A DNA stretch of 9,629 bases from Nitrososphaerota archaeon (GTDB lineage: Archaea; Thermoproteota; Nitrososphaeria; Nitrososphaerales; UBA57): positions 1 through 9,629 of the forward strand of contig VHBL01000008.1 of assembly GCA_016871995.1 (NCBI GenBank), given 5' to 3'. The notes beneath the pieces were generated by a model, which was given only the letters and a program-made list of their open reading frames with translations, was not told the DNA's origin and made no database searches. Below, piece after piece: positions 3,730-9,629 of this stretch (positions within the stretch are counted from its first letter, which is position 1; every line of letters begins with the position of its first letter). The position numbers and the translations under genes are program-made.

Positions 3730-4638
3730 TCAGGAAGGTTTTCTGATTTCTTCCTTCAGGATGATGGATATGGCATAGAGCATGACGCTAGTGAGGAGGA
3801 TAAGTGTACCTACGGTAAAGAAGAAGATCGCGCCCAATGCAAAGGGCACGCTGAAGTATCTGCTGGCATTGTAGAGATCTATAACTATGGTAGAGATGTA
3901 GAGACCTATGCCTAGTAAGGTCAGGCCAGGGAGCCCAAGTAGGAGGAGAGGTCTACCTAATACGATCTTTTGAAGGATGTATGAGACTACTGTGTAGCCA
4001 TGGTTGAAGGGGTTGTAAGTCGATGTGTCCCCTTCGTATCTGATCGTGATGGGAATCTCTATTACGCGTAGCCCCTTTTTAGTTGCGTCCAAAAGGATTT
4101 CGGAGTCGGTTTCGATGCCGTCGGCCTTCAATTCGATGATTTTCAATGCTTGTTTTGAATATGCCCTGAAGCCGCTCTGGGTATCACTTACCTTAGAGCC
4201 TGAGGCTTGCTTAAAAAGAGAGTTTATAATCCTGTGGCCTACCTTTCTATAATTGGGTGTGTTCTCGTCTGAGTTTAGGAAACGAGAGCCAATTACCACG
4301 TCAGCTACCCCTTTGACTATAGGTTCGACTAGTTTGGGGATTTCCTTTGCGTCATGCTGCCAATCCGCGTCTAGGGTGACTACTGCGTCAGGTTTTAGGC
4401 TTTTGCATACTTCAAATAGCGTTTTTAGAGCAGCTCCTTTGCCCATATTTTGAGGGTGTCTGAATACTTCGGCTCCTAGGTGTTGAGCTATTTCGGAGGT
4501 CATGTCTTTGGAGCCATCGTCGCATACTAGGATTTTGTCTACGTGTTTAGATGATTCGATGAGTACTTTCGCTATGGTGTGCTCTTCGTTGTAGGCTGGG
4601 ATGCAAGCTACTATCATCGAGTCACGGCTACGAGTCAT
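3730..4638 (-). CDS. GT2 (GT-A fold) polyprenyl/dolichyl-phosphate sugar synthase-type glycosyltransferase (GtrB/ArnC/DPM1-like) with two C-terminal TM helices
   Basis: The N-terminus IVACIPAYNEEHTIAKVL...ILVCDDGSKDMT and the catalytic DxD-type motif VVTLDADWQHD are present, as are IGSRF and DTQSGFRAYSK. The C-terminus has two hydrophobic helices (LLLLGLPGLTLLGIGLYISTIVI and FALGAIFFFTVGTLILLTSVMLYAISII). This architecture is characteristic of lipid-phosphate hexose synthases. The start may be ATG 4638 (AAGGA 5 nt upstream) or the internal ATG 4617. Confidence 0.9.
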   Translation of the reverse strand: MTRSRDSMIVACIPAYNEEHTIAKVLIESSKHVDKILVCDDGSKDMTSEIAQHLGAEVFRHPQNMGKGAALKTLFEVCKSLKPDAVVTLDADWQHDAKEIPKLVEPIVKGVADVVIGSRFLNSDENTPNYRKVGHRIINSLFKQASGSKVSDTQSGFRAYSKQALKIIELKADGIETDSEILLDATKKGLRVIEIPITIRYEGDTSTYNPFNHGYTVVSYILQKIVLGRPLLLLGLPGLTLLGIGLYISTIVIDLYNASRYFSVPFALGAIFFFTVGTLILLTSVMLYAISIILKEEIRKPS

Positions 4639-4643
4639 TTTTT

Positions 4644-4681
4644 CCTTAGACTAAATAACTGTCCTTAGACTAAATAACTGT
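4644..4681. repeat. Perfect tandem direct duplication, 2 x 19 bp (CCTTAGACTAAATAACTGT)
   Basis: Copy 1 (4644-4662) and copy 2 (4663-4681) are identical and directly abutting. They begin 6 nt upstream of the minus-strand GT2 start codon. On the minus strand each copy reads ACAGTTATTTAGTCTAAGG, which is a TATA-like TTATTTAG followed by a Shine-Dalgarno-like TAAGG. Confidence 0.95.
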
Positions 4682-8340: not shown

Positions 8341-8399
8341 CATACGCTACTGAGGAATTCGATGGATTAGTAATTGTCGAAGCCAAATATGTCTCTGGA

Positions 8400-9629
8400 A
8401 TGGTAGATGAACTAATAGTGGCACGGAGTCTCAAATATTTATTCTTCAAGCAAGGCGGTCTTGAAAATCGTATGAGCAATCCTTCATGGGACATGAAACC
8501 TTTAAGACCTGAATCGCGTCGAAACGTTGTCGAAATGTTGTCAGAATACCTAAGCTTGAGGTGGAATAAGAATCCCGATGTCCTTGTTGTGAAGATTCTG
8601 AGCTTTTTGTTTCTACTTATTGGTTTTGTGAGGGCTTGGCATTTCTGGCACACCGGGGTGATTATTGGAGATGAATACGGGTATATCTGGTCAGCATGGC
8701 AGAGAGAGACGGCGAGTGCTGTTTTGGGCTACAGAGTGGTCTTCGCTTCAACAAACATCGCGTTTTTTGATATTTTCTTGCTGGAAAACATCGATAGAGT
8801 TGTCCTAGCGTTGCCTTTCTACCTGAGTCTGTGGAGCATAACTACTTTTGTAGTGGCCAGACTATGTCTGAAGGCACTTGGCTATGGCGAAAAAGGTAGA
8901 GCGCTTGGCATATTGTTTCTGGCTGGCGTTCCCGCTTTTTTCTACCCTTCGTTCGGACTTTTTACTGAGGCAATGGCTCTTGCCTTTGCGAGTCTAGGAA
9001 TCTACTTTCTTATCGGACATCTCAACACTGGAAGACTTCCTCTAGCCCTTATGGTAGCACTTTTCCTATGGCTTGCTATGGGTTCCAGAGAACCCTATTC
9101 CGTAGTGTTCTTGCTGGCCTTCATGTTTCCATTAGCTAAGGCCATCATAGATAAGGGTGCACGACGTAGAGCAATTGTTGGCTGTTTGGCATTACTGGCT
9201 GTAATCTCATTTACCGTGATAGTCCTAGAAGATCCTGTCGCCAATCTAGGCTTCGCATCTTTCCAGAGTGGGATTAATACGGTCGCTCGCATGGTAGGAT
9301 TGGTTCCTGAACCGACTGATCCGGCGAAGCCTATTCTTGTCGAACCTGAGGTTCAGTCCGGTGTGGTCCCACCTGGTGAGGTTCTACCAGGCGAGGTAGC
9401 GTTAAGACTTCCTAAACCACAAATATGCTTCGATGAATTCGGTAGCGTAGTTGAATGTCCGTCGGTCCCACCTGGTGAGGTTCTACCAGGCGAGGTTCAG
9501 CCCGGTGTGGTCCCACCAGCTCCAGCACCAGCTCCAGCACCAGCTCCAGCACCAGCTCCAGCACCAGCTCCAGCACCCGGACCAGCACCAGCTCCAGCTC
9601 CCGGACCAGCACCAGCTCCAGCACCAGCA
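8400..9629 (+). CDS. Multi-pass membrane protein, GT-C-like (PMT_2/ArnT-like) glycosyltransferase candidate with an extracytoplasmic Pro-rich and (Pro-Ala)n tail; the 3' end lies beyond the right edge
   Basis: By hand translation the frame is open from ATG 8400 (alternative ATG 8472) to the last base, 410 codons. It is absent from the track, presumably because it has no in-window stop. There are about 7 hydrophobic helices. TM1 (VLVVKILSFLFLLIGFVRAWHFW) is followed by a loop carrying GDEYGY (Asp-Glu at 8670-8675). That placement resembles the loop-1 acidic motif of GT-C enzymes that use lipid-phosphate-sugar donors. The middle section YLSLWSITTFVVARLCLKALGYGEKGRALGILFLAGVPAFFYP resembles the PMT_2 core pattern. 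The family call is made by eye only. Confidence 0.65.
   Translation, partial: MVDELIVARSLKYLFFKQGGLENRMSNPSWDMKPLRPESRRNVVEMLSEYLSLRWNKNPDVLVVKILSFLFLLIGFVRAWHFWHTGVIIGDEYGYIWSAWQRETASAVLGYRVVFASTNIAFFDIFLLENIDRVVLALPFYLSLWSITTFVVARLCLKALGYGEKGRALGILFLAGVPAFFYPSFGLFTEAMALAFASLGIYFLIGHLNTGRLPLALMVALFLWLAMGSREPYSVVFLLAFMFPLAKAIIDKGARRRAIVGCLALLAVISFTVIVLEDPVANLGFASFQSGINTVARMVGLVPEPTDPAKPILVEPEVQSGVVPPGEVLPGEVALRLPKPQICFDEFGSVVECPSVPPGEVLPGEVQPGVVPPAPAPAPAPAPAPAPAPAPAPGPAPAPAPGPAPAPAPA
9348..9517 (+). repeat. Permuted direct repeats inside the membrane-protein tail
   Basis: An exact 33-nt repeat GGTCCCACCTGGTGAGGTTCTACCAGGCGAGGT occurs at 9365-9397 and 9464-9496, 99 nt (33 codons) apart. A 26-nt repeat GAGGTTCAG(T/C)CCGGTGTGGTCCCACC occurs at 9348-9373 and 9492-9517 with one mismatch. 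The order is A-B ... B-A. It encodes EVQSGVVPPGEVLPGEV ... VPPGEVLPGEVQPGVVPP. Confidence 0.95.
9516..9629 (+). repeat. Tandem (CCAGCTCCAGCA)n microsatellite-like repeat encoding (Pro-Ala)n
   Basis: These 38 codons read PAPA x5, then PG, PAPAPA, PG, PAPAPAPA. The tract is in frame with the membrane protein and runs to the last base of the window. The minus-strand track ORF 9412-9624 (LELVLV...) is its antisense shadow. Confidence 0.95.

Follow-up and report, generated by a model that had tools for sequence, protein, structure and literature searches.

Several glycosylation systems act on the outer face of the membrane, where they add a sugar. In Haloferax, AglD, AglR and AglS add the last mannose to the N-glycan of the surface-layer (S-layer) protein on this face, after AglB has transferred a tetrasaccharide (PMC3871713, PMC4335974). 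Recently, GT136 systems, which combine a polyprenyl-phosphoribose synthase, a MATE/MOP flippase and a GT-C glycosyltransferase, have been described in bacteria (PMC11127046). This work concerns a comparable gene set on contig VHBL01000008.1 of an uncultured Nitrososphaerota archaeon, described as a soil or freshwater thaumarchaeon. The whole stretch of DNA analysed, 9,629 nucleotides (nt) long and termed the window hereafter, was mapped by six-frame analysis and Pfam/NCBIfam scans. It covers the left-hand portion of an island of surface-glycan biosynthesis genes beside an S-layer operon, and encodes glycosyltransferases (GTs) of families GT2 and GT4, and a GT-C-like membrane protein that runs off its right-hand end. 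The gene layout is familiar, and the membrane glycosyltransferase family is one that is rare and was previously unclassified.

On balance, the locus probably specifies a three-component, outer-face decoration step dependent on a dolichyl-phosphate (Dol-P) sugar. This judgement draws on sequence, modelled structure and analogy, and covers the mechanism rather than the acceptor. It is favoured because the gene set reproduces the known scheme of synthase, flippase and GT-C enzyme. Firstly, on the cytoplasmic face, a GT4, two fused GT2 modules, a second GT4 and at least one methyltransferase would build a lipid-linked glycan. Secondly, and in parallel, a 295-amino acid (aa) GT2 (3730-4617) would load a single sugar onto dolichyl phosphate, the carrier to be expected because the host is an archaeon. 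Thirdly, a MOP-family flippase encoded just past the window would carry the lipid-linked sugar across the membrane. Fourthly, the GT-C enzyme (8400 onwards) would pass this sugar, via an Asp-Glu loop on the outer face, to an acceptor in the cell envelope. The likeliest acceptor is a glycan on the S-layer protein, modified as an N-glycan branch or cap, a proposal we hold tentatively and at somewhat less than an even chance.

A preliminary description of the window had anticipated part of this arrangement, and each gene it flagged is present where it was placed, or a few codons away. It went further in proposing that the genes form a self-contained module, dedicated to a neighbouring Ser/Thr-rich surface protein that might be O-glycosylated, and these proposals fared less well.

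A rare membrane protein family with a predicted GT-C fold

Closely related sequences extend the view beyond the window. Its GT4 protein is residue-for-residue identical on 11 public metagenome contigs. Contig L002 is 100% identical to the window across 1790-9482 and diverges after 9482, and L001 is 99.7% identical from 1123 onwards. The membrane protein, cut by the window end at 410 aa, is 675 aa in full on L002, where a hydropathy scan finds about 12 hydrophobic segments. Alternative starts at 8472, 8493 or 8535 are possible, because homologues begin near residue 50-60.

Neither Pfam nor NCBIfam scans matched the window's membrane protein, and the full-length L002 protein was also without a Pfam PMT_2 match. 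A HMMER scan of 1.84 billion cluster representatives recovered 49 relatives at E<=1e-3, the best being P0001 (48% identity, E=3.1e-53). Those looked up were singleton or two-member clusters, mostly labelled 'hypothetical', with one Nitrososphaerales member named 'glycosyltransferase family 39 protein' by NCBI. When 38 relatives were scanned individually against Pfam, six matched PMT_2 (best 1.2e-9) and three matched PMT. Relative P0006 reached 29.5 bits against PMT_2 (PF13231), above the 26.1 cut-off; scores of the window protein and its five nearest relatives were sub-threshold or absent. Hence the earlier suggestion of GT39, GT83 or PMT_2, when put to hidden Markov models, held for a minority of relatives and failed for the protein on which it was made. 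The profile matches place the family as a predicted remote outlier of the PMT_2 clan, rather than a recognised member. NCBIfam scans of the relatives identified a leptospiral 'putative glycosyltransferase' family in seven, and WsfD (NF051875) in one. Searches of PDB sequences with the family profile and with P0006 returned nothing even at E<=10. In a word-index homologue search, the full 675-aa protein gave 8000 word-sharing candidates and its soluble C-terminal domain nine, none of which was significant in either case.

Single-sequence AlphaFold modelling of the window fragment was unusable (pLDDT 47.5) and was left out of the fold search. The AlphaFold2 model of homologue P0001, built on a 50-sequence alignment, reached a pLDDT of 89 and a pTM of 0.89, the central loop alone being disordered. 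In this model, a helical bundle leads into a small C-terminal alpha/beta domain. In a Foldseek search of the PDB with this model, the top 22 matches were all GT-C enzymes (probability 0.96-1.00). These were STT3 (1.2e-6) and PglB, the matches to these two ranging to 1.9e-4, followed by ALG12, ArnT (9.5e-4), Pmt4, ALG9, EmbA/B and Pmt1/2. The model thus confirms the predicted GT-C fold (GT-C_A type) of the family, which would be a distant branch and not a member of any solved family.

Hence the GT-C-like character given to this protein in the preliminary description is upheld by the P0001 model and the relatives. It might otherwise have been a Wzy/EpsG-type polymerase, an O-antigen-ligase-like protein or a transporter, as the window protein has no family match and one of the 38 relatives has a weak Wzy_C match (E=0.018). 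However, every significant fold match is to a GT-C enzyme, with transporters appearing only at E>0.6 and a probability of 0.08 or less, and no Wzy-like structure is among the matches listed (the top 50). Furthermore, the acidic pair of the first loop is conserved, and relatives match PMT_2 and PMT. This alternative was rejected on the Foldseek fold evidence, and we give it almost no credence.

Two features mark the family. The motif TGxxxxDEYGY follows the first transmembrane (TM) helix, and its D91 and E92 do not vary among the six closest sequences and are conserved in at least 90% of the 38; these residues are presumed to be a catalytic acidic pair in the first external loop. Other conserved residues are R112, Y141, W145, E190, an R230-E-P motif and R481. 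The second feature is the central loop. In most members (including P0003-P0005, P0009, P0010, P0012 and P0022), a Thr/Ser-rich stretch such as TTTTTTTSVSGSHTTT occupies loop residues ~240-320, and may act as a spacer or as a mucin-like segment that is itself glycosylated by the enzyme. In the window lineage, its place is taken by a stretch rich in Pro, Glu, Val and Ala. There, the window has two direct copies of a 33-nt sequence (9365-9397 = 9464-9496), as well as a Pro-Ala repeat, (CACCAGCTCCAG)n, at 9514-9629. L002 is without the Pro-Ala repeat and runs straight into the next TM segment, and three other contigs break near 9395; the length of this linker is therefore either polymorphic or mis-assembled. 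The family, defined by its TGxxxxDEYGY loop and Thr/Pro-rich central loop, is so far exclusively thaumarchaeal.

A predicted lipid-sugar synthase and a neighbouring flippase

The GT2 gene lies in a frame spanning 3730-4638 on the minus strand, within which gene callers start at the ATG at 4617. The product matches Pfam Glycos_transf_2 (E=4.8e-27), and two C-terminal hydrophobic helices are visible in its sequence. Its top four NCBIfam matches are AglJ (1.6e-46), PpgS (6.5e-36), a haloarchaeal Dol-P hexose transferase (4.5e-26) and ArnC (2.7e-17), all of which score under their equivalog cut-offs. Against the AglJ equivalog TIGR04182 it reaches 159 bits, for a cut-off of 325, making it a relative of AglJ and not an orthologue. 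Its sole PDB matches are the Pyrococcus DPMS 5mlz (1.3e-16) and ArnC, with the ArnC alignment spanning residues 4-272 and including the TM region. These matches support, at the family level, the predicted identity of the protein as a polyprenyl-phosphate sugar synthase of the DPM1/GtrB/ArnC/AglJ/AglD type. The preliminary description had named a GtrB/ArnC/DPM1-type enzyme with C-terminal TM helices, and the matches are of this polyprenyl-phosphate type rather than to enzymes with non-lipid acceptors.

Upstream of this gene, a perfect 19-nt tandem duplication (TCCTTAGACTAAATAACTG x 2.1) occupies 4643-4681, 5-26 nt from the start of the gene. Located in the intergenic region between the GT2 and a divergently oriented vapB-like gene, it may serve as a promoter element or as a binding site for a regulator.

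The third component lies outside the window. On L002, the GT-C gene is followed downstream by a Polysacc_synt/Polysacc_synt_3 (MOP-family) flippase of 547 aa, then by a class-I methyltransferase (242 aa) and another GT4. As the flippase, methyltransferase and GT4 all fall beyond the window, and no oligosaccharyltransferase is found nearby, the genes within it do not amount to the self-contained module that had been envisaged.

Gene company of the GT-C family

Linkage was assessed through contig look-ups of family members, scans of genomes and metagenomes, and local tblastn with all locus proteins. A profile scan of genome contigs with the GT-C alignment yielded no confirmed relatives; members in metagenome-assembled genomes (MAGs) were instead recovered through a scan with the double GT2, plus local tblastn. 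The nearest genomic relatives of the double GT2 (46-50% identity) were all from Nitrososphaerota/Thaumarchaeota MAGs. After merging duplicates, there remained ~12 independent lineages with usable context, in which neighbours were counted within ~10 kb of the GT-C gene.

The linkage of the GT-C gene to glycan genes is robust. Nearly every context is a glycan-biosynthesis island, with L068 and L074 showing little besides a UDP-glucose-dehydrogenase-like (Ugd-like) gene. A relative of the double GT2, or of its N-terminal half, is the most frequent companion (seven of ~12 lineages; fused on L008 and split on L010). An AsnB-like amidotransferase gene follows with six (L007, L008, L012, L013, L014 and L072), lying directly downstream of the GT-C gene on L012-L014. 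Five lineages each have an AglJ-like GT2 (the window, L007, L012, L013 and L014), a MOP flippase (window/L002, L012-L014 and L071, where it is next to the GT-C gene) and a Ugd-like gene (L012-L014, L068 and L074). The S-layer operon is near in three (window/L001, L013 and L014). The Nitrososphaerota MAG loci L012, L013 and L014 share a cassette of a GT2, an AglJ-like GT2, the flippase, the GT-C gene and the AsnB-like gene, of which the other GT2 has a weak AglG-like match (2.3e-23). Hence the trio of synthase, flippase and GT-C recurs without being universal, and the S-layer operon is an occasional neighbour. The pairing of synthase with GT-C that had been suggested for the window therefore stands in so far as both genes share the locus and linkage to glycan genes recurs, and is weakened by its restriction to five of the ~12 lineages. 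The AsnB-like and Ugd-like neighbours hint at a glycan with amidated uronic acid, although neither gene is visible in the sequence of the window lineage.

The content of these islands raises the question of whether the cluster instead makes a glycan unrelated to the S-layer, such as an exopolysaccharide, lipoglycan or glycolipid, with the GT-C enzyme acting like ArnT, Emb or GtrC and the S-layer gene adjacent by accident. A Wzx-like flippase, GT4s, GT2s, sugar-modifying enzymes, Ugd and an AsnB-like protein are typical of polysaccharide loci, the double GT2 finds its best PDB matches in bifunctional polymerases (chondroitin synthase and heparosan synthase), and no S-layer gene was seen within reach of the GT-C gene in ~9 of 12 lineages. 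Nevertheless, adjacency to the S-layer operon is repeated in three lineages despite protein divergence to ~45% identity, and the loci are without Wzy-like, Wzz-like or ABC-type export genes, save for an ABC2 pair on L007. Thaumarchaeal S-layers are, moreover, heavily glycosylated (PMC11153153). We regard a wholly S-layer-independent glycan as improbable.

The adjacent S-layer operon

The gene at the left end of the window encodes a secreted protein with a signal peptide (MHAVAFIVLLVTSSVFIAAPAFVPKASA) visible in its sequence. As first described, this fragment has exactly 12 N-x-S/T sequons and a high Ser+Thr content (25%); 2.4 kb separate its start from the GT2. Taken by itself, its sequon count is just ~1.9 standard deviations above that of composition-preserving shuffles (7.7 +/- 2.3). 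The full-length orthologue on L001, called at 1381 aa, has 40 sequons against 24.6 +/- 4.3 in shuffles, a number reached but never surpassed in 2000 of them. The C-terminal 220 aa of this orthologue match PDB entry 8c8k ('Cell surface protein', 1734 aa; E=2.3e-27), which we take to be the Nitrosopumilus maritimus S-layer protein NmSLP; homology is demonstrable for this C-terminal part only. The gene that comes next on L001 is homologous (E=9e-23) to an L014 protein with a signal peptide, a coiled coil and a TM anchor, and is predicted to be a SlaB-like anchor gene. The window's protein is accordingly best regarded as a predicted thaumarchaeal S-layer protein and true homologue of NmSLP. All 17 glycans of NmSLP are on Asn residues of N-x-S/T sites (PMC11153153). 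Given these N-glycans, the sequon enrichment and the homology, N-glycosylation of the neighbouring S-layer protein is to be expected.

The N-terminal, outer part of the S-layer protein is hypervariable. Window positions 1-1122 align to 3958-5061 of L001 with 71% protein identity, and the window has no nucleotide match in L001 at 672-1122, whereas the adjacent glycosylation genes are 99.7-100% identical between the strains. This looks like diversifying selection or recombination on exposed, sequon-rich domains.

Large Ser/Thr-rich secreted proteins also adjoin the glycan cluster on the Nitrososphaerota MAG loci L013 (2-2497) and L014 (2-1426). Contrary to the window lineage, these are depleted in sequons (2 on L013, against an expected 10.3 +/- 2.7), with 26-31% Ser/Thr. 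They were considered as homologues of the window's S-layer protein, and the match was marginal (E=0.009 at the C-terminus). Therefore the identification of S-layer operons on L013 and L014 relies on the SlaB-like partner.

The likely acceptor

As the acceptor of the outer-face step, an N-glycan branch on the S-layer protein is slightly favoured over O-glycosylation. Three considerations support this: the sequon enrichment, the N-glycans of NmSLP and the precedent of AglS. Bare Ser/Thr residues of the S-layer protein are the next most likely acceptor, and one that we consider unlikely.

If the GT-C enzyme did act on such residues, it would be a PMT-like protein O-glycosyltransferase, moving sugar from Dol-P to Ser/Thr of the S-layer or other envelope proteins. 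There is some evidence that it may, making this role a minority prospect worth retaining. PMT_2 and PMT are the nearest recognised families by sequence, and the Asp-Glu pair right after the first TM helix resembles what we take to be the acidic motif of PMT enzymes. Adjacent S-layer proteins are 25-31% Ser/Thr, with sequons depleted on L013 and L014, and most family members contain the Thr/Ser-rich stretch in the central loop. There is also a vacancy for such an enzyme, as those responsible for archaeal O-glycosylation are unidentified: the pathway was 'still elusive' in 2021 (PMC8241124), and no later identification was found in the literature searched. However, PMT_2 also takes in enzymes that act on lipids or glycans, ArnT among them, and a match to it is therefore uninformative on the acceptor. 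The Pfam scan of the 38 relatives detected no MIR domain or TPR repeats in any, and the best structural matches are STT3 and PglB, not PMT. The homologous S-layer protein of solved structure showed N-glycans only (PMC11153153), the window lineage's own S-layer protein is enriched in sequons, and the S-layer operon adjoins the GT-C gene in just three of ~12 lineages. Hence the Ser/Thr O-glycosylation first put forward for this locus survives as one candidate among several, with nothing in the data specific to a Ser/Thr acceptor.

The structural matches raise the prospect of a different direct role, in which the GT-C protein is a non-STT3 oligosaccharyltransferase. In this scheme the AglJ-like GT2 would start a Dol-P-linked oligosaccharide, the other GTs extend it and the MOP flippase flip it, before its en bloc transfer to the S-layer protein. 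The top matches are indeed the oligosaccharyltransferase catalytic subunits STT3 and PglB, but neither the E-values nor the TM-scores set STT3 far apart from ArnT or ALG12. The WW[DE]xG motif, of which WWDxG is the STT3 form, was present in none of 50 family members, and an STT3 Pfam match in none of 38. To our knowledge, no non-STT3 enzyme of the GT-C_A type transfers oligosaccharides en bloc. The cassette of AglJ-like GT2, AglG-like GT2, flippase and GT-C does mirror the order of the Haloferax Dol-P pathway (PMC3871713), and no AglB gene occurs in any of the loci. Canonical aglB is nevertheless found elsewhere in Nitrososphaerota genomes (PMC12153357), and this scheme appears very unlikely. 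Taken together, a direct attachment of sugar to protein by this family, whether as an O-glycosyltransferase whose substrates are S-layer and anchor proteins rich in Ser/Thr, or as an oligosaccharyltransferase of non-STT3 type, is improbable without being far-fetched.

The proposed Dol-P-dependent decoration step itself faces several difficulties. The TM-scores of the P0001 model to solved GT-C enzymes are modest (0.28-0.44), at sequence identities of 11-15%, and the fold applies to the family and to a 48%-identical homologue, the window protein itself being a fragment. The use of a polyprenyl-phosphate donor by the GT-C enzyme is circumstantial, based on a Dol-P-sugar-synthase-like GT2 and a flippase sharing the locus. 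Indeed, the AglJ-like GT2 could instead initiate a Dol-P-linked oligosaccharide, as AglJ does. In ~7 of 12 lineages there is no AglJ-like GT2 within reach of the GT-C gene, so that this donor pairing is not obligatory. An AglB gene, sought by its WWDxG motif in all related loci, was not found in any. Lastly, the surface proteins of L013 and L014, being poor in sequons and rich in Ser/Thr, fit ill with a role confined to N-glycans.

Other features of the window

The coordinates of the features are collected in Table 1. Scans of the window with Rfam and for tRNAs gave no matches.

Table 1. Features of the 9,629-nt window, with positions, strand and the evidence or characteristics noted for each
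Feature	Positions	Strand	Basis or remarks
S-layer protein (predicted), N-terminal 434 aa	3..1304	-	Signal peptide, sequons; gene runs off the window
Methyltransferase-like open reading frame, 177 aa	1792..2325	+	Weak Methyltransf_11/25 matches
Small membrane protein, 94 aa, two TM helices	2781..3065	+	Pro/Thr/Ser/Lys-rich tail
GT2, 295 aa, predicted dolichyl-phosphate sugar synthase	3730..4617	-	Pfam, NCBIfam and PDB matches
VapB-like antitoxin / PIN toxin pair	4791-5389	+	Pfam PIN
GT4, 332 aa, cytoplasmic face (predicted)	5554..6552	+	Pfam
Fusion of two GT2 modules, 579 aa	6601..8340 (frame from 6586)	+	Two Glycos_transf_2 stretches
GT-C-fold membrane protein (predicted), N-terminal 410 aa (675 aa in full, L002)	8400..9629	+	Relatives and model of a homologue
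Asp91-Glu92 codons, motif TGxxxxDEYGY just after first TM helix	8670..8675	+	Conservation among relatives
Pro-rich variable central-loop linker of GT-C protein	9365..9629	+	Repeats, contig comparison

The GT4, double GT2 and membrane protein genes are co-directional, with gaps of 48 nt and 59 nt, agreeing with the 50-60 nt originally estimated. The family assignments of the first two were also borne out: the GT4 matches Glycos_transf_1 (E=1.4e-31) and Glyco_transf_4 (E=3.7e-19), and the double GT2 matches Glycos_transf_2 (E=1.7e-60), with a hydrophobic helix after each module. A fused orthologue of the latter (51% identity) lies beside the GT-C homologue on L008 (3621-5381), and on L010 (8050-9752) and L078 each module has its own gene, the two (303 + 264 aa) lying side by side. 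From the sequences, this appears a clear case of gene fusion or fission next to the GT-C gene.

The methyltransferase gene is intact at 214 aa in L001 and L003, with a start equivalent to window position 1681. Two 1-nt indels, at 1674 and 1651, distinguish the window from these strains at the 5' region of the gene (1681-1800): a T run is shorter by one nucleotide, and 77 nt further downstream one nucleotide is inserted. The gene is therefore called as two open reading frames of 62 aa and 177 aa in the window and in L004-L006. The window sequence also has a Gly-to-Cys change in the likely S-adenosylmethionine-binding loop (DAGMGWG to DACMGWG). It may be a decaying or phase-variable glycan methyltransferase. 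A homologue of the small two-TM protein (43% identity) is encoded just upstream of a GT2 on L017 (2404-2697), from a Nitrososphaerales MAG; in Pfam, the small protein has no more than a weak, sub-threshold holin-like match.

Between the divergent GT2 and the GT4 operon lies a toxin-antitoxin pair, comprising a VapB-like antitoxin of 72 aa and a PIN toxin of 126 aa (Pfam PIN E=1.5e-7), with reading frames overlapping by 4 nt. On L068 and L069, too, the GT-C homologues have PIN, HEPN/NTase and AbiEii modules as neighbours, suggesting that genes for defence and toxin-antitoxin systems tend to accumulate within islands of this kind.

Discussion

If the proposed mechanism is true, thaumarchaea decorate their S-layer coat through an outer-face, lipid-sugar-dependent step, which in archaea has so far been documented essentially only for Haloferax AglS. 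This would be achieved with a compact and testable gene set of synthase, flippase and GT-C, often accompanied by Ugd and an AsnB-like gene. Thaumarchaeal S-layer glycans shape the chemistry of the cell surface and probably resistance to viruses. Being rare and unclassified, the GT-C family would establish a new family of glycosyltransferases. Were its acceptor Ser/Thr, it would address how archaea O-glycosylate proteins, although the present evidence does not favour this over an ordinary N-glycan branch. Experimental interest in the family nevertheless stems mainly from the limited chance that it acts directly on protein, in which case it would provide the first genetic handle on archaeal O-glycosylation, or on glycosylation independent of AglB.

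Comparison with known systems places the locus between several of them. The bacterial GtrA/GtrB/GtrC, GT136 and ArnC/ArnT systems likewise have a lipid-phosphate sugar synthase, a flippase and a GT-C enzyme acting outside the membrane (PMC11127046). With ArnC/ArnT the likeness extends to the proteins, as the GT2 here aligns with ArnC over the TM helices and the GT-C model matches ArnT. The locus differs in having a large Wzx-like MOP flippase instead of GtrA, a GT-C protein in no named family, and a target that is probably an S-layer glycoprotein rather than lipopolysaccharide. The PMT/PMT_2 clan (GT39, and GT83 with ArnT) shares profile matches with the relatives, an acidic pair after the first TM helix, and fold matches in Pmt4, Pmt1-Pmt2 and ArnT; the lack of MIR, the Thr/Pro-rich central loop and the small alpha/beta C-terminal domain set the family apart. 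STT3, AglB and PglB (GT66) are the best structural matches, similarly combining a multi-TM core with a C-terminal soluble domain on the outer side, yet the family has neither WWDxG nor an STT3 Pfam match, with identities of 11-13% and TM-scores of ~0.4. WsfD, which we take to be a hexose transferase of GT-C type from an S-layer glycan cluster in bacteria, is similar in being a membrane transferase encoded in an S-layer glycan locus, but it is bacterial and is linked to the family by the lone weak match (4.4e-5).

The other archaeal system in this comparison is AglD/AglR/AglS. The host there is one of the Halobacteria rather than Nitrososphaerota, the GT2 here falls well below the AglJ equivalog cut-off (159 vs 325 bits), and the comparison of AglS with the GT-C protein covers gene set and described role. 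Nevertheless, both systems comprise a GT2 Dol-P-sugar synthase, a flippase-like protein of the Polysacc_synt family and a multi-spanning, Dol-P-sugar-dependent transferase (PMC3871713), this last role being the one predicted for the GT-C protein. In each, these components are embedded in an archaeal S-layer glycosylation cluster, together with soluble-face GT2s and a methyltransferase.

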